Of a stretch of DNA of 64,000 bases, positions 1 to 47,057 are shown piece after piece. The DNA comes from Escherichia coli (GTDB taxonomy: Bacteria; Pseudomonadota; Gammaproteobacteria; Enterobacterales; Enterobacteriaceae): the NCBI RefSeq assembly GCF_024223415.1, contig NZ_CP100500.1; one strand, written 5' to 3'. The first letter of the stretch is position 1, and each line of letters opens with the position of its first letter. The translations under genes were made by a program, and so were the position numbers. A model generated the notes under the pieces. It was not told where the DNA came from and did not search any database. It worked only from the letters and a program-made list of their open reading frames with translations.

Positions 1-865
1 GCTTAAGCAGCGTCAGCGGCGCGAGGATCGGCAGCAGCCCGGCGCGATAGTTGAGGATCACCTCCCGCAGCTCGCCGCGCTGGCGGCTGTTCAGCTGGTC
101 GCGGAAATAACCCTGAATATGCATCAGCACGTTGGTGTGGTTTTTCCGCGAGGCGGGCCGCTTGAGGATCGCCATCAGCTTTTCGCGATAGACCTCGAAG
201 AAAGCCTCCAGATCCTCCCATTCATGCAGCGAGGCGACGAAGGGGACGATCTCGCGGTAGCCCGCCTGGTGGTGAGCCAGCAGCTGCAGCTTGTAGCGGC
301 TGTGAAAGGCCAGCAGGCCGTGGCGGGTCAGGCCGCGGGCGCGCAGGGCGTTGAGTTCATGCAGGGCGAAGACGCGCTCGACAAAATTCTCCCGCAGCAG
401 CGGATCGTGCAGCCGGCCATCCTCTTCCACCGGAAGCCACGGGTAGCGCGCCATCAGGGCGCCGGTAAACAGCCCCACGCCTTCCTTACGCCCGCGATTG
501 CCTTTTTCATCATACAGCCGCACGCGCTCCATCCCGCAGCTCGGCGATTTGGCGCAGACGATAAAGCCCGACAGCTCGCCCAGGGTTGCCAGATGGGCGT
601 TGGCGAAATCGGCCATCTTCTCCGTCACATCCTCGTGCGGGGCGTGGCTGAAGCGCATGCGGATCTCCCCGACCGGGGTCTGCACCAGCCGGAGCGCCGG
701 GCGGGGAACGGGCAGGCCGATCGCCATCTCCGGGCAGACGGGCTTAAACGCCACCCACTGCGCGAGCTCATCCATCACAAAGCCCATACGCTTATGCCCG
801 CCGTCGAATCGCACGGCTGAGCCGGTTAAACATCCGCTGATCCCAATGACAGGTTGCGTGTTCAT
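1..865 (-). CDS. DUF523/DUF1722 (YbgA-like) fusion protein; 5' portion only, 3' end lies beyond window start
   Basis: Minus-strand frame from ATG at 865 translates MNTQPVIGISGCLTGSAVRFDGGHKRMGFVMDELAQWV... then ...DGRLHDPLLRENFVERVFALH; no stop before window edge; ATGA overlap with upstream gene stop at 862-864. Not in ORF track because it has no in-window stop. Confidence 0.75.
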   Translation of the reverse strand, partial: MNTQPVIGISGCLTGSAVRFDGGHKRMGFVMDELAQWVAFKPVCPEMAIGLPVPRPALRLVQTPVGEIRMRFSHAPHEDVTEKMADFANAHLATLGELSGFIVCAKSPSCGMERVRLYDEKGNRGRKEGVGLFTGALMARYPWLPVEEDGRLHDPLLRENFVERVFALHELNALRARGLTRHGLLAFHSRYKLQLLAHHQAGYREIVPFVASLHEWEDLEAFFEVYREKLMAILKRPASRKNHTNVLMHIQGYFRDQLNSRQRGELREVILNYRAGLLPILAPLTLLK

Positions 866-1413
866 GGCGCTGTCCTCGCTTCTGCTGTGGTTCGGGTAAA
901 GAAAAGGGTCACGGTGGCCACCGTAATGCCGAATTTCTTCATCTCGGTTTTGTTAAACAAATGGCTGCCGTCCTGCAGGAACATCCAGTCGTCAAAGTGC
1001 AGCAGCCACCGGCTGCCGCTGGCCTCGACGTTCATGCTGTAGCGCCAGTGAAAGGCATTGCCTGCCGCCTGGCCGCTGGCCACGCCTTCGATATCCCCGG
1101 CGGTGCCCTGATAATGGTTATCGCCGGTGCGGCGAATGCGCCACACCCGCTGCTGTTTCTCGCCATCGTCATAGACAAAGCGCTCATGGAGCGTCAGGGT
1201 GTCGCCGACGACGTCGCCATCGATCGCTACATGGAAGCGGCGCAGCTGTTTACCGCGGCGATCCTGCACCATCCCCCACGCCTCGGTTCGACCCTGAAAA
1301 TAGTGGAAGATGTCGAGGGCGGGCTGCTGCTGCCGGTACTCGGTGACCTCGGTGCTGCAGCCGGCGAGCATCAGCATCAGCAGCGCCAGGCCACGGGTCA
1401 GAATGCGTTTCAT
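862..1413 (-). CDS. DUF3833-like lipoprotein
   Basis: Internal start of track ORF 862..2007: MKRILTRGLALLMLMLAGCSTEV (lipobox LAGC); start overlaps stop of the upstream gene (ATGA at 1410-1413). Confidence 0.65.
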   Translation of the reverse strand: MKRILTRGLALLMLMLAGCSTEVTEYRQQQPALDIFHYFQGRTEAWGMVQDRRGKQLRRFHVAIDGDVVGDTLTLHERFVYDDGEKQQRVWRIRRTGDNHYQGTAGDIEGVASGQAAGNAFHWRYSMNVEASGSRWLLHFDDWMFLQDGSHLFNKTEMKKFGITVATVTLFFTRTTAEARTAP

Positions 1414-1934
1414 GGTGTACCTCCGATCAACTGCTGACGCAGTTCGGGATAAGTGGTGCGCGGATCGAGCCAGATGGCGAGAAATCGGGTGCTGAACGCC
1501 GCCGACTGGTGCGGGCCGAGCGGGGTAAAGGCGGTCTGCGCGGCGCTGGAGCGGTACCAGAACTGCCCCTCGCCGCCGCTGACCACGAACGCCAGCTGGC
1601 TGCCCGACGCAACGTCCGGCCAGATCCCCTGCAGCATGCGCAGCCAGGCTTCGCTGCGCGGCTCCTGCTGCAGAATGCCCTGCGCCTGCCACTGGTCGCG
1701 GGTGGCCTCCACCAGCGCCTCGCGATCGATGTCGCGCCGGTAGGTGATGATCAGCGCCCGATCCTGCTGCGGGCCGGCATACCGGCCATTGGGCGTGCGC
1801 AGCTGTGAGTGATAGACGGTGAACGGCCCCCAGGTGAGGGTCGCCTCGCCGACGCGGCGCCACGTCAGCCAGTCGGCGGCGTGGGCCGCCGGGGCGAGGG
1901 CGCTCAGCCACAGCAGTAACAGGGCGAATCTCAT
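1410..1934 (-). CDS. chalcone-isomerase-like periplasmic protein (tentative family)
   Basis: 174-aa ORF with N-terminal signal peptide MRFALLLLWLSALAPAAHAADW; translationally coupled to neighbours on both sides. Confidence 0.5.
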   Translation of the reverse strand: MRFALLLLWLSALAPAAHAADWLTWRRVGEATLTWGPFTVYHSQLRTPNGRYAGPQQDRALIITYRRDIDREALVEATRDQWQAQGILQQEPRSEAWLRMLQGIWPDVASGSQLAFVVSGGEGQFWYRSSAAQTAFTPLGPHQSAAFSTRFLAIWLDPRTTYPELRQQLIGGTP

Positions 1935-2125
1935 TTTTGCCTCCCCATCCCCAGATGGAACAACAGCATGAGCACCAGCCAGCCGCAGGCCATGGCGGCC
2001 ACGGCAAGCGCCGTCGGTACCAGCAGGGTCACGAACTCCCCCTCTTCGGCGCAGAACGAGATTTCCCTGGCGGCATAGAATTCGCCGAAGGTTTTGGTCA
2101 CCTGTTCCAGAACCAGTTTTGACAT
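1931..2125 (-). CDS. small hypothetical membrane protein, first gene of a 4-gene minus-strand operon
   Basis: 64-aa ORF with hydrophobic C-terminus; ATGA overlap with downstream gene; AT-rich divergent promoter region 2126-2340 upstream. Confidence 0.4.
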   Translation of the reverse strand: MSKLVLEQVTKTFGEFYAAREISFCAEEGEFVTLLVPTALAVAAMACGWLVLMLLFHLGMGRQK

Positions 2126-32582: not shown

Positions 32583-33806
32583 ATGGCTAAAAACAAAGGT
32601 ATCTGTCGGAATAAAAAATGCAGCAATCCTGTTTCAGAATTTGATGAGGCAAATGCCCTGAGGTTATGTGATGATCATTATCAGTTATGGAAACGAAATA
32701 AAGAGAACCGTCGGGTCAGGAATATTTGTCGTATAATCAGTAAATATGACAAAAGTCTGGACCGGGAGATATTTGACAGAGTAATAGATGCTGCAAGAAA
32801 TCAAACGGGAAAGAGAATTGTTGAGGACGCAAAAATATTACATCAATTGCGCAATTCAAAGCAAGTAAGAAAAAGTCTTCATAATGGAGTACTCCGGTCA
32901 CGGGAATGGCTCAATACACAGGAGTTACTGAGAAGAAAAAATATATCTGTTACAGGTGACTCATTTAAATCTTACATAAAGGATATTGTCAGATTATATT
33001 GCTATAAGTTTCTCTACAGCAGAGAATATCTTAATGAAAACGCATGCAAAAAACAATATCAGAGAGTTATTAACCCCAGAGAATTTAATGTTCCGATACT
33101 TCAACTTGAAGTTGCATGGATCAATAATAATTGCCGTTCAAGTGATTCAAGCTCTGATATTATCATCCTTCCCAGGATGATAAGAAGAATGGTTGTATTT
33201 AATGATACGAAGATAAATAAACAATTAGAGGAAATGTTGGGGGGGATAGCACGAAAAAAAGTCGCAGTAAGGAATAAAGGCGGTCTCTATACCAGAATAA
33301 AAAAAGAAAATGATTTTCGTTCTATGGATAGATTTATGGTGGAAATCGAAAATATCATAAGACCTGAAATATTTCCGACATCAATTTACCCGCCTTTTTC
33401 ACTTTCATTTATCGAGAGAGAATTGCCACTACTGAATCTGGCGCACTCACAGTACAAAAGAGCAATAAGTAAAAAAGTGGCGAATTCAATTTTTTATACT
33501 TTGCGAAAAACTCACGTGGCATTATGGCTGCATCTTGAAATGTTTGCTCTTGTGGCATTCATCAAACTGTATACAGGAAAAGGGTTTGAATTCATGAAAA
33601 ACATGTGTGTATTTATAGATTATGATAAAGGGATAATAAAATCCACGCATGAAGAACTGCTGAGTGAAATTAAGTGTAACATTCAGTTGAATTTAAAGGT
33701 GAATTCTGATAATTTTCCTGAATTAATAGAAGTATACAATTCATGCTTTAGTAAAAATATATTGTTGTATGATGTTCAGGATGATGGTTTTAAATGGTGT
33801 TTATGA
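32583..33806 (+). CDS. AT-rich orphan hypothetical protein with N-terminal Cys/His cluster
   Basis: 407 aa, Lys/Asn/Ile-rich, far lower GC than its surroundings; N-terminal CRNKKCSNP...CDDH could be a zinc-ribbon; no recognisable family. Confidence 0.5.
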   Translation: MAKNKGICRNKKCSNPVSEFDEANALRLCDDHYQLWKRNKENRRVRNICRIISKYDKSLDREIFDRVIDAARNQTGKRIVEDAKILHQLRNSKQVRKSLHNGVLRSREWLNTQELLRRKNISVTGDSFKSYIKDIVRLYCYKFLYSREYLNENACKKQYQRVINPREFNVPILQLEVAWINNNCRSSDSSSDIIILPRMIRRMVVFNDTKINKQLEEMLGGIARKKVAVRNKGGLYTRIKKENDFRSMDRFMVEIENIIRPEIFPTSIYPPFSLSFIERELPLLNLAHSQYKRAISKKVANSIFYTLRKTHVALWLHLEMFALVAFIKLYTGKGFEFMKNMCVFIDYDKGIIKSTHEELLSEIKCNIQLNLKVNSDNFPELIEVYNSCFSKNILLYDVQDDGFKWCL

Positions 33807-35304
33807 TGTGAAAATATTAAATTTATATTACATTTTAATTATCGACAAAAAACACATAAAGAAATCTAAAGGGAATGAGCGTCAAATGAGCTGATATAGC
33901 GCCAGTTTGGTATGGTCATGTGATTTGATGATTAAAGCTTACGGATAATAACACTCCTCTGTGAGCCATATAAATGAGCATGCCATAATCGTCAGTTCAG
34001 AGATAAAACTGACTGAATGATCTTATGTTATAGTAAGCAGTGTTTACCGGATACGATGACTTATCTCTCTCACATCATATGGATTCACTTTCATGGGGTA
34101 AAGCGATGGGACTACAGACGCTGATTATGATGGTTTGCTGTAAAGTTAGCACAAGTTTTTGCTGTACAGAATACGGAGTAAGAAAAATAATTCCAGAGTA
34201 AATCTGCTCTGCTTTTGAACAGAAAAGATTCATGCTTACCGTGAAAAACTGAAACCAACATTCAGTCTGCATGGATGTCTTAAGATGTTGAGAATGTCGG
34301 ATATGGTATTATATACACCTTTTCCATTAGGTCCTTTTATGTTTTCATTAAGTCGTTTTGTATGTATTCCTCCAGTGATTCATTAGTGCCTGTTTACGCA
34401 TTTACACACTTTTCCCATTAATCTCCTTTAAATGTGTTTCATTACGCATTGCTGTACACATTTTTGAACTGATACACATCCAAGTTAGTAAACCTGTCAG
34501 TTCTGATTTTACGTTAACTAAATCAGTTTAATGCTGCTGTAAAACAATCCTTCCTGTTTAAGCAATCAATCTGCTATTCGATTTTACTGATGTGACGTTT
34601 AACCTTTCCTGAGCTTTGGTTGTTTGTGGTTTTTGGTTTGTGTTTCGACGTTAAGCTGAGAAAAGTATCTTTACGCTAAATCAACCCGAACTTTCCTGAG
34701 GTGATCTGACGTTCTTTTCGATGTGCTTACGACGATTCTGTTAAACGACTTTCTGGATGTTTTGATAACAATCAGATTGAGGCATTAACGATTCCTGACG
34801 TTTTGCTTTTTCATGTAAGGTCATTGTTTTCGTCATGATGTGGTTTTTCTTCTTGCATTGCGAAAGTGTGATGATTGGTTTTGGTTTTTTGATTCAGATG
34901 AGATTTACGTTATCGATGGTTAATCGTTTTTATGGTGAGTAGTGAAACGTAACATTTTCGGGATGAGAAAATCGATTCTGATGGTGATGGGGATGATCGT
35001 GTTACGGCGTTATCTGTAAACAGGTTTTAAACGTGTCATTCGCATTCGTGATTGAGTTGTGTGATTAAGCTGTAGGTTTTGGCGTTGTTGTTGATTTGCA
35101 TTGCCAGGAAGCGTTCTGGTTGCGTTTCTGGTGTTTTGTTCGAATGTTCTGTGGATCCTTTTCCCTTCAGGCTTTTCTCGTCGTCCATGTCGTTTTTAAA
35201 TCCATTCATGCTGTTGTTGCGTGTTTTGCTGCTGTGTGCAGGATTATCTTTTCGTTCCGGGATGGTTTGTTCCGTTTCAATCACTCTTAATCAGAGAGTT
35301 GTAG

Positions 35305-35379
35305 CATTGCTTAATGACATGATGCCGTAAAGTTTTACCGCGGTGATTAATGATGTGAAGTCAATCCAAATCAACGGAG
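35305..35379 (+). promoter_or_regulatory. conserved leader motif upstream of Rep-like genes (second copy at 42311-42344)
   Basis: cattgcttaatga...tgtgaag...tcaa...cggag occurs just before the start at 35390 and again about 150 bp before the start at 42494; the 35k copy has an internal duplication of ttaatga. Confidence 0.4.
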
Positions 35380-35389
35380 ATCTCTCATC

Positions 35390-36121
35390 ATGAATCAACC
35401 AATACACAATGCTTACTGGTTATCCCGTTTTGACAGCCTTCTCGACAGTGCCCTGTCGCAGCACCGTGCCGTCTCGTTAATCCGGGTGGATTTACGTTTC
35501 CCTGAGTATATGCCTGTCACCATCATGGATCCCGATCCGGATTCAGCGGTGATTTCTCGTTTTTTCGAATCCCTGAAAGCCAAAATCCAGGCTTACCAGC
35601 GGAAAAAACGACGTGCCAACAAGCGTGTGCGTGCAACCACTCTGCGTTATTTCTGGTGTCGGGAGTTTGGCAAGGAAAAAGGCAGGAAACATTATCACGT
35701 GATATTGCTGCTCAACAAAGATACCTGGTGCTCGCCAGGGGATTTCAGCGAACCATCTTCGCTGGCGACGATGATCCTGGAGGCATGGTGCAGCGCCCTG
35801 CATCTTGAGGCCTGGCAGGGTAATGGACTGGTTCATTTTTCCAGGCGGACGCCTTTCCGTAAACCGACATCATCTGATGCTCGCCCTTCTTCCGATGATA
35901 CGCCTTTGTCGGGTGGATGTTCTGATACCAGGAAGGCTTCAGACAAAAAGCCGGGTGAAGCCGCTGTTCTCTGGATCAAGCGTGGTGATGTGGCAGCGAT
36001 GCAGAAAGCCCGGAAAAGAGCCCGTTATCTCGTGAAAAATCAAACGAAGCAGCATAATGGTTCCGGTCAACGTAATTATGGTTGCAGCCGTGGGCCGGGG
36101 CGTCTGCTGGATGGCAGGTGA
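35390..36121 (+). CDS. YagK/YfjJ-family protein (inovirus Gp2-like, HUH Rep-like)
   Basis: 243 aa; HUH-like motif KHYHVILLL; RBS ggag; preceded by a 1.5 kb noncoding leader. Confidence 0.65.
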   Translation: MNQPIHNAYWLSRFDSLLDSALSQHRAVSLIRVDLRFPEYMPVTIMDPDPDSAVISRFFESLKAKIQAYQRKKRRANKRVRATTLRYFWCREFGKEKGRKHYHVILLLNKDTWCSPGDFSEPSSLATMILEAWCSALHLEAWQGNGLVHFSRRTPFRKPTSSDARPSSDDTPLSGGCSDTRKASDKKPGEAAVLWIKRGDVAAMQKARKRARYLVKNQTKQHNGSGQRNYGCSRGPGRLLDGR

Positions 36122-36631
36122 AGTCTGTAAAACGGTATCCGGTGCCAGGGGGGGGATATCACGGTAAGGGCGTCAGCCAACGTCTTTCGCTCGTATTCTG
36201 ATAACCCGTCCTGAAGTCATGTATCTGCTTCCATTCTCATGTTCATATTTCTCTTACGCTTTCACTGTCTGTCATCGGAAGTACCGATTTATTTTGGTGC
36301 TGCGCACTTACGGCCATTCACGGAAGAGGATTGTGGTGAACAGTAGGAGTCTGGCTGCTGGCGAGGGAAGGTTCAGGACTGGTATGGGGTTTAGTGCTGG
36401 AGGATGACTTTGAATCCCGGATTGACCAGTGAGGGGGCAGTGAGAGGATGCTCTGGTGTAACAGGTCTGGATTACAAAATATAAAACCGGTTGTACACTC
36501 GTAACGGGTAAAAGGATACGGGCAATAACACGTGGTACCCGGTGAGACTGGCTCTTGTATCACATTACCGGGAATATTCTGGCAGGTGAAATGTTCTGAT
36601 AAGAATCATCCTGAGGGAGGATACAACGGAT

Positions 36632-37084
36632 ATGAACGTTATTGACAGCCGCATTCGTGATGTGAAATTTGGTGAAAATGTGAAAGTCGTCATGCCAGTA
36701 AACCTCTATGAATGTGAACTGGGGGATGATGTTTTTATCGGTCCCTTTGTGGAAATACAGAAGGGATGCATCATTGGCAACCGGAGCCGAATTCAGTCCC
36801 ACAGTTTCATCTGTGAGAACGTCATTTTAGGTGATGCCTGTTTCATCGGTCATGGCGTAACTTTTCCTAATGATCTGTTTAAGTGTGGTGGTCCCGATAC
36901 CTCTGCAGAAAGCTGGATACGCATCGTATTAGGTAACACTGTAACAGTGGGTAGTGGAGCGACCATTTTAACAACAGAAATTTGCAGTGGAGCTGTGATT
37001 GGTGCTGGTAGTGTGGTTACAAAGCCCGTGCTGGTAAAAGGCGTGTATGCGGGTAATCCGGCCAGACTTTTGAGAACGCTTTAA
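36632..37084 (+). CDS. hexapeptide-repeat (left-handed beta-helix) acetyltransferase
   Basis: 150 aa with repeated [LIV]-G-x-x-x-x hexapeptides (IGNRSRIQSHSFICENVILGDACFIGHGVTF...); RBS gaggga. Confidence 0.75.
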   Translation: MNVIDSRIRDVKFGENVKVVMPVNLYECELGDDVFIGPFVEIQKGCIIGNRSRIQSHSFICENVILGDACFIGHGVTFPNDLFKCGGPDTSAESWIRIVLGNTVTVGSGATILTTEICSGAVIGAGSVVTKPVLVKGVYAGNPARLLRTL

Positions 37085-37335
37085 TTATTGAATCCAATAT
37101 TAAACCAGACAGACAGTAAACATAATACTGTTCCGGATATCGCTTGCCGCAGGAACCTCCTTAACATTCAGGAAAATAAAGCTTTTATTGCTGCTATGTA
37201 CCATAAGAGACAGAAGTAATTGATTTACCAGTATTACACCTGTTGAAGCTATGGTTATTCACCTTTTATTTTTTGAGCAGCGTATTTATACTTCCCGGAG
37301 CATTGTTTAAATATAATCGCCCGGGATTGATTCGT

Positions 37336-38241
37336 ATGGCTCTTGAACAGGAAATCGCAAACCTTGTAAACGAGTTTGTCGCGGCTGGTCGTCCATCCTG
37401 TCGTGACCAGACCTTTGATGAACGCCGTGCCGGATATATCGCAAGTACTGCTCTGGCCGGCGATACAGAAACCCGCGTAAACATCAGTGATGTGATTATT
37501 GACGATGTTTTATTGCGCATATTTTCGCCTTTAAACGATGATGGGGTGTTATCCGCAATTGTCTATTATCATGGTGGCTGTTTTGTCAGTGGTGGTTTTG
37601 TAACCCATGATAATCAGTTGCGACAGCTTGCTTTCCTGAGCGGTTGTCGTGTCATTGCTGTACAATATCGATTAACGCCGGAACATATTTATCCTGCGGC
37701 ACATGACGATGCTGAACATGCCGCTAATATTGTGTGGCAACACGCAGAAATGTTGAAAGTTGATCGCAACAGAATAACGTTAATGGGGGATAGCGCTGGG
37801 GGACATCTTGCACTGATAACAGCACTGCGGGTTAAAAACATCGGTCAGTGGTTACCGCGAAAATTAATACTTATTTACCCTATGCTGGATGCCACAGCAT
37901 CATGTGATAGTTACAAATTAAACGGTAGTGACTATGTGCTGACAGCAGACACGTTTCTTAGTGGTTATGAGGCTTATTTTTCCGGTCAGGATTTAGAACA
38001 TCCGGAAGTGAGTCCATTATTCAGGAATGATTTCAATGGGTTACCACCTGTTCATGTCATCACAGCGGAATATGACCCATTACGCGATGAAGGTGAGGAA
38101 CTGTTTTCCCGTATGATTCAACAAGGAGTAAAGTGTACCGCCCAGCGTTATCTCGGTGTCATTCACGGTTTTTTCCAGCTTGGCGGCATTAGCCAGACAG
38201 CCCGTAATCTGATGCAGGATATTTGTGGGATTGTTAAATAA
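37336..38241 (+). CDS. alpha/beta hydrolase, esterase/lipase (HSL/Aes-like) family
   Basis: Oxyanion-hole motif HGGCF (YYHGGCFVSGG) and nucleophile motif GDSAGG; start placed at the internal Met MALEQEIANL (track ORF begins at 37243). Confidence 0.65.
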   Translation: MALEQEIANLVNEFVAAGRPSCRDQTFDERRAGYIASTALAGDTETRVNISDVIIDDVLLRIFSPLNDDGVLSAIVYYHGGCFVSGGFVTHDNQLRQLAFLSGCRVIAVQYRLTPEHIYPAAHDDAEHAANIVWQHAEMLKVDRNRITLMGDSAGGHLALITALRVKNIGQWLPRKLILIYPMLDATASCDSYKLNGSDYVLTADTFLSGYEAYFSGQDLEHPEVSPLFRNDFNGLPPVHVITAEYDPLRDEGEELFSRMIQQGVKCTAQRYLGVIHGFFQLGGISQTARNLMQDICGIVK

Positions 38242-38487
38242 TCACGTAACAAGCAGCTACAGGTAAATTAGCTGAGCATGCATCCATCATTTGTCGCTGC
38301 GATGCCAGACTTCCGGATGCTCATATGTTGTTTTACTTTTGTCAGCATAAATGCTGCGTCGGGACTGGTGAATGGAGATAAGCCATTTTATTATCGACGT
38401 CAGAGAACATACTCACAATGTCGGTATGTTTCTGAAATTAAGGGTAAGTTTTGCGCTGATTACAGTATGCGAAGGAGATCTGGCACA

Positions 38488-40080
38488 ATGAATCCCGCTT
38501 ATATGCAATCCCCCCATTTCCCGGCAGATTTAACATACAGATTATTTCCTCGTAAGCTTGCGTATCTCATTGACGACTTATATGAAAGTACCCAACTTCC
38601 GCTGGATCTCATTTTTAATACTGTACTGGCAACGCTCTCACTCTCCTGTCAGTCATTGGTTGACGTTGTTCATCCTCACACCAACATGCCGGAACCCTGC
38701 TCACTTTATCTGTTGACAATCGCAGAGCCAGGCGCGGGAAAAACAACGATAAACAGACTGGTGATGAACCCCTGTTACGACTTTGCCGATCGACTCATTC
38801 AACAATACGAAGAGAGAAACAAAGATTATAAAACTGAACTACAGATCTGGAATACCCGACAGAAAGCTCTTTCTGCCAGTTTAAGAAAGGCTATTAACCG
38901 GGGGTATCCGGGAGAACAGGAAGAAGAGGCGCTGCGTAATCACGAAAGAAATAAACCGACACGTCCGGTTCGACCGAATTTTATCTATGAAGATGTTTCA
39001 CTTAAAGCGCTTGTGGAAGGACTCAACGAGCATCCGGAGGCGGGAGTTATTTCTGATGAAGCGGTAACTTTTTTCAGAAGCTATCTGAAAAATAGTCCTG
39101 GTCTGTTGAATAAAGCATGGAGTGGACAACCGTTTGATTTTGGACGGGCTGACGAGAAATATCATATCACTCCACGCCTGACATTTTCGCTAATGTCCCA
39201 ACCGGATGTTTTTACGGCTTATATAAATAAAAATGATGTACTGGCCAGGGGAAGCGGATTTCTTTCCCGGTTTCTGTTCAGTCAGGTTGTAAGTTCTTCC
39301 TGGATACGTGATTATACGAGAGGTGAGTTCAGAACAATACCAACCCTGGAGAATTTTCATAAAAAGATTAACGGATTTCTGTTAAGCCATAACATTAATT
39401 CCCCCGGCATGAGCACCGAAAGGAAGACATTAAAACTTGCGAAGAAAGCGTTGGGGGAGTGGCAGGAAAACCAGAGTAAGATTGAAAGCAAAGCGCTTGC
39501 AGGAGGGGAGTGGGAACACATCAGAGATATTGTTCTGAAAGCAGGTTCTAATATACTGAGGATAGCGGGTTTATTCACCTTCTATGGCAATAAAGATGCT
39601 GAGGAAATTGAATCAATTGCGCTTTTTAACGCCATGCATCTCATGGACTGGTATCTGGAGGAGGCAAGCGCAATATTTTATCCCATGTCTGAGCGACGCC
39701 AGTTTGAGCAGGATGCCTGTGAACTGTATGCATGGATTATGACCCGAATCAGGCAGAATAACTGGTGTGCTATCAGGAAAACAGATATTGAAAGATATGG
39801 TCCCAATCGACTGAGAAGAGCAGAAAAGCTTACACCTGTACTCAATCAGTTAATTGCTCAGAATTATTTCTGTATCATCAAAATGCGCTCGCATCAGGCA
39901 CTTTATGTTTCTGTTCGTAACAATAATGGTTACCTCCTTCCTTTCGGCACAATGTCTTACGAACCGTTTGATGTTGTACCCTCCTTGTATAGTCATAATG
40001 CGAAAATATATCCCGTTAATATTCCACCGGAATTAATCCAGTCATTTGCGTTACCTTTTTCAGCCTATAACTTATTCTGA
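38488..40080 (+). CDS. DUF3987-like primase/helicase-type P-loop protein (YfjI-like)
   Basis: P-loop AEPGAGKTT; start placed at the Met with RBS aaggag (track ORF begins at 38278); typical partner of AlpA and Rep-like genes in P4-like islands. Confidence 0.65.
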   Translation: MNPAYMQSPHFPADLTYRLFPRKLAYLIDDLYESTQLPLDLIFNTVLATLSLSCQSLVDVVHPHTNMPEPCSLYLLTIAEPGAGKTTINRLVMNPCYDFADRLIQQYEERNKDYKTELQIWNTRQKALSASLRKAINRGYPGEQEEEALRNHERNKPTRPVRPNFIYEDVSLKALVEGLNEHPEAGVISDEAVTFFRSYLKNSPGLLNKAWSGQPFDFGRADEKYHITPRLTFSLMSQPDVFTAYINKNDVLARGSGFLSRFLFSQVVSSSWIRDYTRGEFRTIPTLENFHKKINGFLLSHNINSPGMSTERKTLKLAKKALGEWQENQSKIESKALAGGEWEHIRDIVLKAGSNILRIAGLFTFYGNKDAEEIESIALFNAMHLMDWYLEEASAIFYPMSERRQFEQDACELYAWIMTRIRQNNWCAIRKTDIERYGPNRLRRAEKLTPVLNQLIAQNYFCIIKMRSHQALYVSVRNNNGYLLPFGTMSYEPFDVVPSLYSHNAKIYPVNIPPELIQSFALPFSAYNLF

Positions 40081-40856
40081 AATAAACCAACACAGATGAA
40101 ACGAAAAAAAACAACATTCATTCGAAGGTTGGTGGTAAGGAGTTTGCATATCCTGCATCTGTGCAAATATTCACCAGTTATGGGGCGCGAACGAAAATTT
40201 CTCTGAAAAAATCGCTACGGTAGCAACAGTAGCAGCACATGCACCATGTCTGTTATTTGATTTTGTTTTCATAATGACCTGTTGTCAAAGCTGATTGAAT
40301 ACAGGAGTGTGCGCACTGGTGGAAGAGTGGCTTTCGTTTTTGGTTATTCGAAAGAAAATCGAAATATTGTTTTTAACATAGCTGAAGCTAATCATATAAC
40401 CATATTTTTTGAGTTTTTATATATAACTTTGTTTGATTCTTGTCGTAATGAGTGCTGGCGTATATGACGATGTCGCTCTCTTTCTGAATAACGAAAGGTT
40501 ATCAGTCTTTTACTGACAAGAGATGCTGTTCAGGTTTCAATGGGAGATTGAAGAAAAACGATTTGATATTTTCCGTGAGAGAATGTCTTGTCAGGTTCAT
40601 ATTCATAACGGATAATTTCTTATTTTCACTCATCAGACATGGATAATTTTAATTTAGGTTTATTACTATAATTAGTATCTGTTCCTTTATTTTTATCCAT
40701 CTATCCCTTTATTTTTCATCTATCTATCCTTTTATTATTAGTATCTGTATTTTTATTATTGGCATCTGTCTATTTATTTTTATCATTCTCTCCTCTCTGT
40801 CTTTACTCTCATTGCTCTTACTCTCATTCTGTTATTTCTACTCGTGTTATCGTGTT

Positions 40857-40944
40857 CACTCTATCACTCTATCACTCTATCACTCTATCACTCTATCACT
40901 CTATCACTCTATCACTCTATCACTCTATCACTCTATCACTCTAT
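40857..40944. repeat. 8-bp microsatellite (cactctat) x11 inside a pyrimidine-rich repeat-dense noncoding region
   Basis: Eleven perfect tandem copies; degenerate ~22-bp and ~14-bp repeats lie just upstream (40660-40856). Confidence 0.9.
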
Positions 40945-41689
40945 CCATCTCTCAATCATAACGATTGTCACTCATATGATACTCAGCCATGTTATTTTCT
41001 ACTGCTCTGCTGAGCTTATCTGTCTGTTCTCATCTTCAGTGAAACAGCACCTGATTTTACTCTTATCCATCATGAACTGTCTTTGTTCAACGATGATGGT
41101 ATGTCTGATATGTGTTAACCATTTTGATGGGTATCGTTGATTATCCGATGGTTAAGCTTCGATAAGGTTATCCATAGAACAGTGTGGGGTAAGCAACATG
41201 ATCCCTGATGATATTTGTTCCGTGTTGTCTTGTTGTTTAAGCGACAGGAAATATGTCAATGGCATGTTTTATTCTGCTGCCGTGAGCCATGCATGTTCTG
41301 AAGAACAGATTGAATGAGCGCATGTGAGTTTATTACGTTGGCCTTGTACACGTTTTTTTAGAACCACTGAGAGCAAGTTTGTAGTTTATGATGCTATTGG
41401 TCGTAATATGTTTCTTGAACTTTTGATCGTGGGTTTTTATCTCGTATTTTTCAGCATTTCTCGGTGTTGTATTGCGTCGATATTTTCTTTATTCCCGTTA
41501 ATATCATCTCGTCAGTGTCCATTCCTTTCATCACAATGCGTATCGTTAATAATCTGTTGTATCCATCCGCCTACAGCATGCCTGATAAATACCGTCTGTC
41601 AGTTATTACCGTTTTAGATCTGATTATGAGCGAAGGTATTCATTCGCTGACAGAACTTAAAACGTCATTAACTTACAGGAGTTATCAGC

Positions 41690-42240
41690 ATGCCTCAGTC
41701 TTACACACCAGACTGGTTTTTTACCGCCTTACTTGACCATCACATCGATCAAATGATGGCTCGCTATTCCTGTCTGCGGGCCTTACGGATGGATTTCTTC
41801 TACAGGAAAGAGACGCCTGATTTCTTACAACCTGATCACCGCTGGCTTGAATTGCAGTTGCGTATGCTGCTGGACCAGGTTGAACGGTTTGAAAATATGG
41901 TTGGTTTCTTCTGGGTGATTGAATGGACGGCTGATCATGGTTTTCATGCGCATGTGGTTTTCTGGATCGATCGTCAGAGGGTGAAAAAATATATCCCTTT
42001 GCGGAGCGGATAACCGAATGCTGGCGGGCTATTACGTATAACTGTGGTTCGGCGCACCGCTGTACATACCAGCCGCATTATGCATACAACATCAACATTC
42101 CCGTGCGCCACAACGATCCTGAAAGCATCGATAATATTCGCGGTGCCCTGCATTATCTGGCGAAAGAAGAGCAAAAAGACGGACTGTGTGCATACGGCTG
42201 CAGCGAAGTGCCTGAACGTCCTGCTGCAGGGCGACCACGC
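41690..42240 (+). pseudogene. YagK/YfjJ-family Rep-like gene, frameshifted
   Basis: MPQSYTPDWFF...DHGFHAHVVFWIDRQ (HUH-like HAH) then continues in another frame (...ITYNCGSAHRCTYQPHYAY...ALHYLAKEEQKDG...). Confidence 0.5.
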
Positions 42241-44211: not shown

Positions 44212-47057
44212 ATGAAAATCTGTCTTTACCATACCCTGAATCCTGAAACGATCCCGGGCTATAAAAAGTTTGCGCAGGCCATTGAGGCAGATAATTTCGC
44301 GCAGGCGGATGTGCGTAAAATTGATACTAATCTCTACCGGGCACGCCTCAGTATCCGGGATCGGTTGTTGTTTTCACTTTACCGTTACCGTGGTGAGACG
44401 GTCTGCCTGGTACTGGAATATCTGCGTAACCATGCTTACCACACGTCACGTTTTCTGCGCAGGAATGTGGTGATCGACGAGGCGCGGCTGCAGCTGCAAC
44501 CGGTGCCGGATCCGGCAGATGCAGACGCCGGTACACTGACGTATCTCAACCCCACTCACGGGCGTTTTCACTACCTGGATAAAATGCTCTCTTTTGATGA
44601 TGACCAGCAGGCGCTGTATGAACATCCGATGCCACTGGTGATTGTCGGCTCCGCCGGCAGCGGAAAGACGGCACTGTTACTGGAGAAAATGAAGCAGGCC
44701 GGGGGCGATATTCTGTATCTCAGCCTTTCGTCATTTCTGGTGGAAAAAGCCCGCACACTCTATCACGCATCTGGTGAAGAACATGACGGGCAGACCATTG
44801 ATTTTCTGTCGCTGAGCGAGTTTCTGGAAACCCTGCGCATTCCGGAAGGGCGGGAGGTGACGTTCAGTGCGTTCAGCAACTGGCTGCCCCGCAACCGGAC
44901 CACCGCTGCACTGGCCTCTGGCCATACCCTGTATGAGGAATTTCGTGGTGTCATTGGTGCCGTTGCTTCTGACAACGGACCGCTGTCCCGGGAGGCGTAT
45001 CTGTCGCTGGGAGTACGTCAGTCACTTTATGATATGGATGACCGTCCGGCGGTTTACGCCCTGTTTGAGCGTTATGTTGCATGGCTGAAACAGTCGCGTC
45101 AGTATGACAGTAATCTTCTCAGCCACCAGTACCTGCCACTGGCCGGGCACCGTTATGATGTGGTTTTTGTGGATGAAGTGCAGGATATGACGCCTGTGCA
45201 GCTGCGGCTGGTTCTGAAAACCCTGCGTCATCCCGGTCAGTTTGTACTCTGCGGCGATGCCAATCAGATAGTTCATCCCAGCTTTTTTCCTGGAGTGCCC
45301 TCAAAAGCCTCTTTTTCCGGCAGCAACAGAACGAGGCTGCCGTGAATATTCTGCAGGCGAATTACCGTAACGGGCACCATGTCACCGCACTGGCTAACCG
45401 GCTGCTCAGACTTAAACTGGCCCGGTTCAGTGCCATTGACCGGGAAAGTCACCATTTTGTCAGAAGCTGCGGGCAGACGGAAGGCACCATCAGGCTGCTG
45501 GAAGACCGGGAAGCCACCCGCCATGAGCTGAACAGCAAAACCTCCCGCTCAAACCGTGTGGCGGTGATTGTGATGCAGCCGGAGCAGAAAGCACAGGCCC
45601 GGCGCTGGTTCAGTACACCGCTGGTTTTTTCGGTTCAGGAAGTGAAGGGGCTCGAGTACGAAACGGTGATCCTGTACAACATGGTCAGCAGTACCCGTAA
45701 GGCATTTGATGATATCTGCGAAGGGATCAATCCGGCAGATCCTGAGGGTGAGGTGCGTTATGCCCACCCCCGGGACCGGCAGGATCGTTCAGCAGAAATC
45801 TACAGGTTTTTCACCAACGCGCTGTATGTTGCGCTCACCCGTGCCACGCACAACGTGTACCTTGTTGAGCAGGAGGTGGCCCATCCGCTGTGGTCCCTGC
45901 TGGCCCTCACGCATCATGAAACGCAACTGGAGCTGCAGGAAGAGATTTCCAGCCGTGATGAGTGGCAGAAAACCGCTCACCTGCTGGAAAAACAGGGGAA
46001 GCAGGAGCAGGCGGACACCATCCGCAGTATGATCCTGCAGGAGTCAGAAGTACCGTGGCAGATCTTCAGCGCAGAGGATGCGCGGCAGTGGAAACAGCAG
46101 ATCCTCAGCGGGACGGCGGACAAAGCCACGAAACTGCAGGCGCTGGAATACAGCCTGATTTATTCCCTGTTTCCGCTGTATAATGCGCTGTACCGGGAAG
46201 ATTTTAAGCCCACAAGGCAGCCCCGGACCCGGAGCCAGCAGTTACTGGAGCAGAAGTATTTTCGTCCCTACTCAGTGAATAATCCGGTCGCCGTGCTGAG
46301 GGATATTGAACGTTATGGTGTTGATCACCGCTCGCCGTTTAATCTTACGCCGCTGATGCTGGCAGCCCGGGCGGGGAACACGGCGCTGGTTCAGTTGCTG
46401 CTGGATCGTGGTGCCGATCCCACGCTGACGGCAAATGACGGGCTGGCGGCGTATCATCATGTTCTGTCAGCGGCGGTCAGCACGCCCCGTTATGCGCAGC
46501 AGAAGGGGGCACAACTCTATGCCTTGCCGGGACCGGAAAGCCTGTCACTGCAGGTGGAAGGGCGGCTTGTCAAACTGGACAACCGGCAGATGGCAATGTT
46601 TCTGGTGATCCTGATGCAGGCATTGTTTTACACGCATCTGGGGAATGCTCTGGTTTTTTCAGAAGCCTTCAGTGCGGCACGACTGGCAGAGTGTGTCGCC
46701 CACTTTCCTGAAGCCCTGCTGCCGGAACGCCGCAGGCGGAGGAATTATATCAGCAGCCAGCTTTCTCAGCATGAAGTTAACAGCAAGAACCCTTATGGAA
46801 AAAAGCTGTTTCTGCGACTGAGGCATGGTCAGTATATTCTTAATCCGGGGCTGAAAATCAGGCAGAATGACGGGTGGTACCCGGTTTACGACTTGCAGTC
46901 ACCGGAAGATCTCGGTCATGATTTACAGACGTATCTGCAGGACATGCCCCCGTACATTCTGGAGATTCTGGGGGGCAGGAAGGATGTTTACGAACAAAGT
47001 AAGGGGTCTGTCGGATACTGGGTGGCGATGATCCGCCGTCACAGTGGTGAGCCGTAA
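44212..47057 (+). pseudogene. UvrD/Rep-like SF1 helicase with C-terminal ankyrin-like repeat, split by a -1 frameshift
   Basis: ORFs 44212..45345 and 45342..47057 are consecutive parts of one helicase: Walker A GSAGSGKT, Walker B VFVDEVQD, GDANQ, then QANYRN and ALTRA motifs in the second frame; ankyrin-like TPLMLAARAGNTALVQLLLDRGADP; adding one T to the T6 run at 45283-45288 restores a continuous frame. Confidence 0.7.

Follow-up and report, generated by a model that had tools for sequence, protein, structure and literature searches.

A hexapeptide acyltransferase and a family IV esterase as cargo between yfjJ- and yfjI-type genes of an Escherichia coli CP4-57-type island

Introduction

The cryptic P4-like islands of E. 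coli of the CP4-57/CP4-6 type carry yfjI, yfjJ, alpA, yfjP, yfjQ and yeeU-cbtA. Our literature search on yfjI and yfjJ returned nothing relevant to the locus described here, in which two enzyme genes lie between them. For the first of these enzymes, the closest described proteins by both sequence and fold are nucleotide-3-amino-sugar N-acetyltransferases that consist of a left-handed beta-helix (LbH) only: WlbB (3mqg/3mqh), the N-terminal domain of FdtD (4mzu), QdtC (3fs8) and an H. pullorum enzyme (7s3u), the last a dTDP-3-amino-sugar N-acetyltransferase. Class I sugar N-acetyltransferases (PglD/PerB/VioB) are built differently; they are bilobal, and a globular domain of about 90 residues at the N terminus precedes the LbH (PMC9271549). 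The second enzyme resembles the family IV, or HSL-type, carboxylesterases PestE (2yh2), EST2 (1evq), AFEST (1jji), E. coli Aes (4krx) and the NCBIfam LipP1 family, with which it has the Abhydrolase_3 fold and the HGG and GDSAG motifs in common.

Here, we analyze a 64,000-nucleotide stretch of E. coli DNA (the window) that carries both genes, and we ask what they are, how they came to the island and whether they belong together.

Results

The island that holds the two genes has the backbone set YfjJ, YfjI, AlpA, YfjP GTPase, DUF932, antirestriction, RadC and YeeU/CbtA, and its gene content and order match CP4-57/CP4-6-type islands in the RefSeq annotation of homologous loci. The "P4-like module" of the first-pass annotation is accurate only if taken to mean the backbone of a cryptic island of the CP4-57 type; in GF60, whose island is nearly identical, no P4 structural or satellite genes are annotated. 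The window island forms part of a larger IS-rich mosaic and has decayed extensively, containing IS elements and pseudogenes. A cognate integrase was not found at its AlpA end, and a scan of the window for tRNA genes was negative. Unlike CP4-57/CP4-6-type islands, the window copy has its yfjJ-type and yfjI-type genes separated by a 2-kb enzyme insert, which is rare. The features of this region are as follows:

35390..36121, + strand: left flank, YagK/YfjJ-family, inovirus Gp2-type Rep-like gene, 243 aa
36222..38276, + strand: whole cargo insert
36222..36631, + strand: cargo leader, non-coding, conserved, 410 bp
36632..37084, + strand: hexapeptide (LbH) acyltransferase, 150 aa
37085..37335, + strand: acetyltransferase-esterase spacer, 251 bp
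37336..38241, + strand: family IV (HSL-type) carboxylesterase, 301 aa
38242..38276, + strand: right edge of the cargo
38488..40080, + strand: right flank, YfjI-family DUF3987 protein, 530 aa

Both flanks had been named correctly at first pass. The left gene matches PF11726 (YagK_YfjJ_C, E=1.5e-37) and PF23343 (REP_ORF2-G2P, E=1e-9) and is called "inovirus Gp2 family protein" by RefSeq in GF60; the right one matches PF13148 (E=1.8e-75) and is a RefSeq "YfjI family protein". Its mechanical open reading frame (ORF) spans 38278-40080, and the likely start is at 38488, as in RefSeq.

Comparison with an empty-backbone locus (L002) delimited the insert: homology ends at 36221 and restarts at 38277, leaving a block of 2,055 bp in place of about 17 bp in the empty backbone. 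Junction alignments put the insertion point at GAAGTCATG^(C)AATGTTTCCTGGTTTTCATGCATCC and revealed no inverted or terminal repeats and no target duplication; the insert carries no recombinase. Its genes are oriented as those of the backbone. These data support the view that the two genes are true cargo, a discrete insert missing from an otherwise homologous YfjJ-YfjI backbone.

The leader is present in all acetyltransferase-bearing alleles and ends in a GGAGG Shine-Dalgarno sequence about 9 nt 5′ of the acetyltransferase ATG. Both of its small ORFs are disrupted in the L005 allele, by indels of 7 bp and 1 bp. The 251-bp window spacer is a shortened, diverged form of the ~454-bp spacer found in alleles L005 and L024. 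At the right edge, alignment showed that the window/GF60 allele lacks about 187 bp relative to PapRG and Z1323, through a deletion between two CATG microhomologies. We considered that the leader, the long L005 spacer and the 187 bp might be remnants of native flanking genes, but blastn and tblastx found nothing, and the leader has no homology to native contexts. An Rfam scan of 35000-42000 (E≤1) gave two sub-threshold chance matches only, neither in the leader or the spacer. Promoter and terminator counts across 36000-38600 equaled the shuffled expectation, and no promoter was identified.

The first gene is indeed a hexapeptide acetyltransferase of 150 aa on the + strand, as first read (Pfam Hexapep PF00132, E=1e-16; PF14602). 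Its AF2 model (pLDDT 91.6) consists entirely of short beta-strands, with the LbH starting from about residue 8, and the Foldseek matches of the model are LbH proteins without exception. Taken together, Pfam, model and Foldseek place it in the hexapeptide/LbH acyltransferase superfamily. With the WlbB/FdtD/QdtC group it shares the LbH-only fold, a length of about 145-190 aa and a GNPAR-type C-terminal tail, and a FIG-x-NVTF-x-ND motif, which contains the VTF-x-N(D) active-site loop, is common to it and FdtD, the H. pullorum enzyme, QdtC and WlbB. The fold matches to this group have a TM of ~0.8, with an rmsd of 1.6-2.0 Å to FdtD. The sequence matches to this group have profile E values of 5e-15 to 1e-14 at a modest identity of 24-28%. 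Residues E41, Q43, S56-H57, C61, H74, N80-D81 and W95 are invariant in the acetyltransferase family, and all of these except N80-D81 distinguish it from WlbB/FdtD/QdtC. Neither the island nor the five native contexts place the gene in a glycan or nucleotide-sugar cluster. The analogy may stop short of the substrate, because no native locus examined lies in a polysaccharide or nucleotide-sugar cluster.

We then compared the protein with curated models, taking a score at or above the NCBIfam cutoff as equivalog membership. It reaches no such cutoff. Two classes, Vat and sugar O-acetyltransferase, had been proposed for it, and both failed: Vat models gave 38 bits against a cutoff of 300 (NF000311) and 40 against 425 (VatC), and the maltose/galactoside (Mac/LacA) models gave 30 against 314 (PRK10092) and 35 against 347 (PRK09527). 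The Vat match is confined to residues ~75-148, when a full-length match would be expected to cover ~200-220 aa. Scores for CatB/XAT (NF000490, 30.6 bits against 350) and class I sugar N-acetyltransferases (TIGR03570, 61 against 160.8) were also too low; at 150 aa and without an N-terminal globular domain, the protein differs from PglD/PerB/VioB (the NeuD/PglB/VioB family) in architecture as well. RefSeq and other sources name some of its homologs "N-acetyltransferase". The window allele has three private substitutions, G69A, A79P and A90T. Residue 79, which adjoins the invariant Asn80-Asp81, is Ala, Ile or Val in 29 of 29 homologs, and to judge from this alignment Pro79 could impair the window-allele enzyme.

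The second gene encodes an HSL-type alpha/beta hydrolase, in agreement with the first-pass annotation (Abhydrolase_3 PF07859, E=1e-66). The Pfam scores of both proteins are far beyond chance. The hydrolase start needed correction. The mechanical ORF, 37243-38241, begins at a TTG and would encode 332 aa; the actual start is the ATG at 37336, giving 301 aa, which is the RefSeq call in GF60 and PapRG. Homology to the Pantoea ortholog begins at 37303. Across the 31-codon TTG extension, comparison with L005 showed 10 nonsynonymous and 2 synonymous codon changes, and the extension is therefore non-coding. The catalytic motifs are intact: an HGGC oxyanion motif at H79-C82, Ser153 in GDSAG (codon 37792-37794), Asp247 in DPLRD and His277 in HGF align residue for residue with the triad and motifs of PestE (E=1e-53), which makes the protein a member of family IV. 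It has HGGC where family IV/HSL-type esterases have HGGG. Like the acetyltransferase, it falls under every NCBIfam equivalog cutoff, with 231 bits against 350 for LipP1, 139.5 against 389 for Aes (PRK10162), and a partial match of 156 against 500 for the EstDL136-type chloramphenicol hydrolase (NF033149). The esterase is part of a separate Enterobacterales clade (Serratia, Cronobacter, Pantoea and Enterobacter; 67-81% identity), in which we identified no characterized member.

Among 5,426 complete E. coli genomes, only 3 carry the full pair. All hydrolase copies above 90% identity lie in the order YfjJ, acetyltransferase, hydrolase, DUF3987. The acetyltransferase alone is far commoner, with ~510 E. 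coli records (~9% of complete E. coli genomes), and Salmonella has the same acetyltransferase-only pattern. YfjJ and YfjI are adjacent, with an empty junction, in 299 genomes; at megablast sensitivity, the rest of ~1,890 retain the YfjJ-like half only. Plasmid and phage collections held no copy of the pair, only distant esterase homologs on Pantoea megaplasmids and in Salmonella records. In the acetyltransferase-only form, a ~350-bp spacer 3′ of the gene is followed by an IS fragment and an H-NS fragment, with no yfjI. The IS end, TGTGTAAGTTCACAG, comes directly after ...ATTACACCTG in L016/L006, at the equivalent of ~37243 in the window spacer. Because the ~350-bp spacer and its counterpart in L005, which carries the pair, share 93% identity up to the IS end, the acetyltransferase-only form is best read from these alignments as derived from the pair, by an IS insertion ~90 bp upstream of the esterase and then a deletion. 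In Z1323MEC0001, the acetyltransferase is intact and the esterase is frameshifted. The two genes have similar dS between the window and L024 (0.12 for the acetyltransferase, 0.15 for the esterase) and between the window and L004 (0.05 and 0.09). With a dN/dS of 0.08-0.30 for both genes among island alleles, these values indicate purifying selection and co-divergence since acquisition.

Beyond the island, the two genes have separate families, both chromosomal and widespread in Enterobacterales. The partner gene was next door in none of 15 native loci (8 acetyltransferase, 7 esterase), so adjacency across unrelated genomes, the mark of a conserved two-gene operon or functional pair, was not seen in this sample; since only these 15 were inspected, a donor with adjacent genes could still exist. 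Acetyltransferase homologs in Enterobacter, Mangrovibacter, Mixta and Erwinia stand alone, beside GNATs, DUF2000, exporters and similar genes. An Abhydrolase_3 gene does lie 3 kb from the homolog in Mixta calida, but at 24% identity to the esterase it is not an ortholog. In the Serratia-like loci L018/L019, the gene located 1 kb upstream of the esterase homolog also encodes 150 aa, but it has no relationship to the acetyltransferase, and the match in length is coincidental. A search of PADLOC-DB 2.0 returned zero matches for the acetyltransferase, the esterase, YfjI, YfjJ and a 407-aa neighbor. The "pair" of the first reading is thus physically and historically joined, but it is not a conserved functional unit: the families are apart in the native contexts examined, and the acetyltransferase is alone in those ~510 records.

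Discussion

The explanation we consider probable is that the two genes form a 2.06-kb passenger block of two independent soluble enzymes, inserted a single time between the yfjJ-type and yfjI-type genes, with the esterase later lost in the common variant. The block would have entered the spacer between the Rep-like yfjJ-type and the yfjI-type (DUF3987) genes once, by a non-transposase route, and the recipient would have been a CP4-57-type integrative island within a mosaic ExPEC/APEC pathogenicity island. The first enzyme is predicted to be a beta-helix-only, presumably trimeric, acyl-CoA-dependent acyltransferase. It most likely acts on an amine, less likely on a hydroxyl, of a small soluble sugar-like metabolite; we infer the amine because the proteins nearest to it in structure and sequence are N-acetyltransferases for the 3-amino group of nucleotide-linked sugars. 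The second would be a cytoplasmic family IV carboxylesterase that hydrolyzes short-chain esters through Ser153-Asp247-His277 and the HGGC oxyanion hole, a prediction in which the motifs are observed and the substrate is deduced from them. Both have probably traveled together since acquisition, neither depending on the other, until the putative IS insertion and deletion eliminated both the esterase and yfjI, giving rise to the far commoner variant.

The same relatives invite a more specific reading, in which the acetyltransferase is a nucleotide-amino-sugar N-acetyltransferase that remodels a host surface glycan (O-antigen, capsule or ECA) and so modifies serotype, and the esterase is an unrelated passenger or a de-O-acetylase. 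The top sequence and fold matches, the shared VTF-x-ND motif and the "N-acetyltransferase" names of some homologs all fit it. We nevertheless hold it to be unlikely: homologs in four genera stand alone outside glycan clusters, no aminotransferase or isomerase partner for making a 3-amino sugar is nearby, and no equivalog cutoff is reached.

It is also improbable, somewhat more so, that the two genes are inert hitchhikers, decaying and with no present role in this strain. Repeated loss or frameshift of the esterase would agree with this, as would the shortened spacer, right-edge deletion and unusual A79P of the window allele, the lack of a detected promoter and the degraded state of the surrounding island. 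Against decay, neither ORF is disrupted in the window, all catalytic motifs are preserved, dN/dS among island alleles is 0.1-0.3, and an intact acetyltransferase has been kept in hundreds of genomes.

Adjacent, co-directional genes that were acquired together and have co-diverged, located at a variable site of a mobile element where IS110-family insertions also occur, could in principle form a coupled system, toxin-antitoxin-like or anti-phage, in which the esterase strips the acetyl group that the acetyltransferase adds. We give this little credence. In Salmonella and the ~510 E. coli records, the acetyltransferase is intact and selected without the esterase, and Z1323MEC0001 keeps it beside a frameshifted esterase; the families are unpaired in the 15 native loci, the 251-454-bp spacer is not an operon-like junction, and there are no PADLOC matches. 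The chance that the CP4-type cargo slot holds a previously unrecognized write/erase acetylation module, with the acetyltransferase acting on a surface glycan precursor, a metabolite or a component of an invading phage and the esterase undoing the modification, is slimmer still; if it were so, the widespread acetyltransferase-only islands would be a "locked-on" derivative.

Equally slim is the chance of antibiotic or xenobiotic resistance cargo, a Vat/CatB-type acetyltransferase with a chloramphenicol-hydrolase-type esterase: the weak C-terminal matches to Vat/CatB models and structures and the partial chloramphenicol hydrolase match are offset by scores far under the curated cutoffs, by Vat/CatB alignments that span only the generic CoA-binding last ~50-75 residues, by the absence of Vat/CatB among the top 50 fold matches and by a length of 150 aa against ~200-220 aa for the matched chains.

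Of the "modification or detoxification cargo" first proposed, cargo stands, as the insert is absent from the empty backbone, and those scores lend detoxification or resistance no support. Our verdict is ordinary accessory enzyme cargo, with no sign of a coupled system or a resistance determinant.

The importance of this finding is slight beyond annotation hygiene. The common "acyltransferase" of E. coli and Salmonella CP4-type islands would be what is left of a two-gene insert that is seldom found intact, and neither annotation nor suspicion as a Vat/CatB-type resistance gene is warranted. The yfjJ-yfjI intergenic spacer is a site that accepts foreign DNA, both this insert and IS110-family elements. 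Finally, two widespread Enterobacterales enzyme families are flagged as candidates for biochemical characterization.

Two accessory genes inserted in a CP4-57-type backbone

The window is part of an E. coli chromosome, from an IS-rich mosaic of ExPEC/APEC-type islands with an S6/SPATE peptidase, PhoX, AbgT, a phosphoethanolamine transferase and a sitA remnant, and its nearest complete genome is that of strain GF60 from chicken meat (~99%). Positions 1-2009 have an unusually high GC for E. coli (0.63-0.67), carry two ORFs, 119-820 (+) and 862-2007 (-), and lie outside the regions matched by GF60 and by the other top genomes, which begin at 2010 or 4368. The first-pass annotation had described an acetyltransferase and an HSL-type hydrolase between a Rep-like and a DUF3987-like gene of a P4-like module. 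Indeed, both ORFs and both flanking genes were found in that arrangement.

23698-24963, - strand, P4-type (arm-type DNA-binding) integrase, 421 aa
35390-36121, YagK/YfjJ, inovirus-Gp2-type Rep-like gene, left flank
36632-37084, + strand, acetyltransferase, 150 aa, hexapeptide repeats (Pfam PF00132, E=1e-16)
from TTG 37243, esterase, mechanical ORF of 332 aa (Abhydrolase_3, PF07859, E=1e-66)
38488 (likely start)-40080, DUF3987/YfjI gene, right flank

The true esterase start is ATG 37336 (301 aa) rather than the TTG, since RefSeq annotates 301 aa in near-identical genomes, DNA homology to a Pantoea ortholog (77% identical) begins at 37303, and the 31-codon extension shows 10 nonsynonymous versus 2 synonymous codon changes between alleles.

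The genes surrounding the cargo form a CP4-57-type backbone: ParDE, DUF4942, CbtA/YeeU, RadC, antirestriction, DUF932 and YfjP GTPase genes, then the YfjJ- and YfjI-type genes, a second Gp2-type gene, AlpA and a frameshifted UvrD-like helicase. The integrase stands at the DUF4942/ParDE end of this module and probably belongs to an adjoining island; none was found at the AlpA end. The term P4-like module is therefore acceptable in the sense of a cryptic P4-like island and not beyond it. There are no tRNA genes in the window, and this, together with the position of the integrase, suggests tandem or rearranged islands. The helicase of the UvrD/AAA_19 type (44212-47057, +) is split into overlapping ORFs, 44212-45345 and 45342-47057, and its GF60 homolog is annotated as a frameshifted pseudogene. 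An AT-rich gap of 1.6 kb (40081-41689) separates the YfjI-type gene (DUF3987, helicase-like) from the second Gp2-type Rep-like gene. Within it, 40676-40945 is non-coding (GC ~0.34), with iteron-like repeats of 21-23 bp at 40676-40786 and a perfect 8-bp repeat, TCACTCTA, in 11.2 copies at 40856-40945; this tract could be the replication origin of the element or a phase-variable tract.

Anatomy of the insert

In L002, an E. coli locus with the yfjJ- and yfjI-type genes directly adjacent, homology to the window ends at 36221 and restarts at 38277, so that 2,055 bp stand in place of ~17 bp. Junction comparison puts the insertion point at GAAGTCATG^(C)AATGTTTCCTGGTTTTCATGCATCC. The insert (36222-38276) has no terminal inverted repeats, target duplication or recombinase. 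It consists of a conserved non-coding leader of 410 bp that ends in a GGAGG ribosome-binding site, the acetyltransferase gene, a 251-bp spacer (454 bp in the L005 and metagenomic L024 alleles), the esterase gene and a 35-bp tail. At the right edge, strains PapRG-04-4 and Z1323MEC0001 and L024 carry ~187 bp more, which the window/GF60 allele has lost through deletion between two CATG microhomologies. No Rfam family was found in the insert, and its promoter and terminator signals were not above chance. Homology to native relatives is tight on each coding sequence (Enterobacter, 36603-37084; Pantoea, 37303-38225), and the leader, spacer and right edge have no match in the native contexts of these relatives.

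Several E. coli genomes (H73-H78) carry an IS110-family or other transposase insertion and no enzyme block in the yfjJ-yfjI spacer. This slot is thus generally permissive to insertion, and the junction at window ~36221/38277 appears to be a recurrent insertion site. Directly after the YfjP-type GTPase gene, a low-GC segment (0.33-0.44) holds a 407-aa ORF (32583-33806, +) with no match in Pfam, NCBIfam or PADLOC. Z1323MEC0001 has a hypothetical-protein gene of equal length there, and other islands have differing hypothetical or RepB-regulator genes, which makes this position a second variable slot.

Identity of the two enzymes

The acetyltransferase reached the cutoff of no NCBIfam model. The best, NeuD/PglB/VioB, scored 61 bits against a cutoff of 161, and CatB scored 31 against 350. 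As for the choice raised earlier between Vat and a sugar O-acetyltransferase, it is neither: Vat models gave 38-40 bits (cutoffs 300-425) and Mac/LacA models 30-35 (cutoffs 314-347). The nearest solved relatives by sequence are QdtC, FdtD (WxcM-like), WlbB and the Helicobacter pullorum dTDP-3-amino-sugar N-acetyltransferase, with which the family shares a FIG-x-NVTF-x-ND loop. A fold search with a confident AF2 model (pLDDT 91.6) gave the same answer: the best matches were WlbB and the FdtD N-domain (TM ~0.8, rmsd 1.6-2.0 Å over 149 residues). For the H. pullorum enzyme (145 residues) TM was 0.79/0.82, and Vat and CatB were absent from the top 50. Unlike the PglD/PerB/VioB class, which is defined by an N-terminal domain of ~90 residues (PMC9271549), this protein has no such domain. 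By sequence and model, it would work like an amino-sugar N-acetyltransferase of the beta-helix-only kind. It is a candidate member of that class with a putative substrate, because the gene lay in no glycan cluster at the loci inspected. The window/GF60 protein carries three private substitutions, A79P, G69A and A90T. Codon 79 (36866-36868), at a variable x position of the loop directly before the invariant Asn80-Asp81, encodes Pro here and Ala, Ile or Val in all other alleles of the island and in 29 members of the family; the Pro79 allele could be impaired or of altered specificity.

The assignment of the second protein to the HSL-type hydrolases held, with HGGC and GDSAG both present. These motifs, together with the Asp of DPLRD and the His of HGF, match position by position the catalytic apparatus of PestE, an esterase from Pyrobaculum (2yh2, E=1e-53). 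The protein is a family IV/HSL carboxylesterase of the canonical kind, yet it fell below every NCBIfam equivalog cutoff, including LipP1 (231 against 350), chloramphenicol hydrolase (156 against 500) and Aes (139 against 389).

Physical but not functional pairing

The evidence says that the two genes are not a functional pair. They come from two separate compact families, both widespread across Enterobacterales chromosomes. The acetyltransferase family (60-84% identity) includes members in Enterobacter bugandensis, Mangrovibacter, Mixta, Buttiauxella, Pantoea, Erwinia, Serratia and Kosakonia and, outside the order, Vibrio ishigakensis; the esterase family (67-81%) spans Serratia, Edwardsiella, Rahnella, Cronobacter, Citrobacter, Pantoea, Enterobacter and Hafnia. 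The partner gene was adjacent at 0 of 8 native acetyltransferase loci and 0 of 7 native esterase loci. Two seeming exceptions were checked and rejected. In hundreds of genomes the acetyltransferase has stayed intact where the esterase is absent, which also speaks against a toxin/antidote relationship. PADLOC had no match for either gene.

Distribution and history of the block

Of 5,426 complete E. coli genomes, 3 have the complete pair: GF60 (100% identity to the window), PapRG-04-4 (95%) and Z1323MEC0001 (92%), the last with an esterase frameshift past ~residue 176. A query with the flanks alone returned just 299 genomes with both backbone genes adjacent, and in part of these the spacer holds an IS110-family element. 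The leader and acetyltransferase (36222-37112) occur in ~510 E. coli records at 95-99% identity, and in Salmonella. Acetyltransferase-only loci have an IS3-family fragment and then an H-NS fragment downstream, and lack yfjI; in BEN5202 and ACN002 (L016/L017), a truncated H-NS-family gene fragment directly follows the IS fragment that replaces the esterase and yfjI.

In these loci, ~350 bp past the gene share 93% identity with the spacer of L005, an allele that carries the pair, and the match ends at ...ATTACACCTG, where the IS end TGTGTAAGTTCACAG... starts. This point is equivalent to window ~37243 and lies ~90 bp before the esterase ATG. IS insertion and deletion in the pair therefore gave rise to the acetyltransferase-only form, and not the reverse. 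In a large protein collection, every esterase copy with more than 90% identity stands in the order YfjJ, acetyltransferase, esterase, DUF3987. Synonymous divergence (dS) from the window is alike for acetyltransferase and esterase (0.12 and 0.15 to L024; 0.05 and 0.09 to the L004 allele), and dN/dS of both genes is 0.08-0.30, a sequence pattern that fits one acquisition, co-divergence and purifying selection of both.

The initial observation is thus confirmed and its interpretation in part: accessory cargo stands, and resistance, defense or a coupled function found no support. The block is a set of ordinary accessory enzymes, physically paired and acquired once, and the CP4-type island of this strain holds its rarely intact form.
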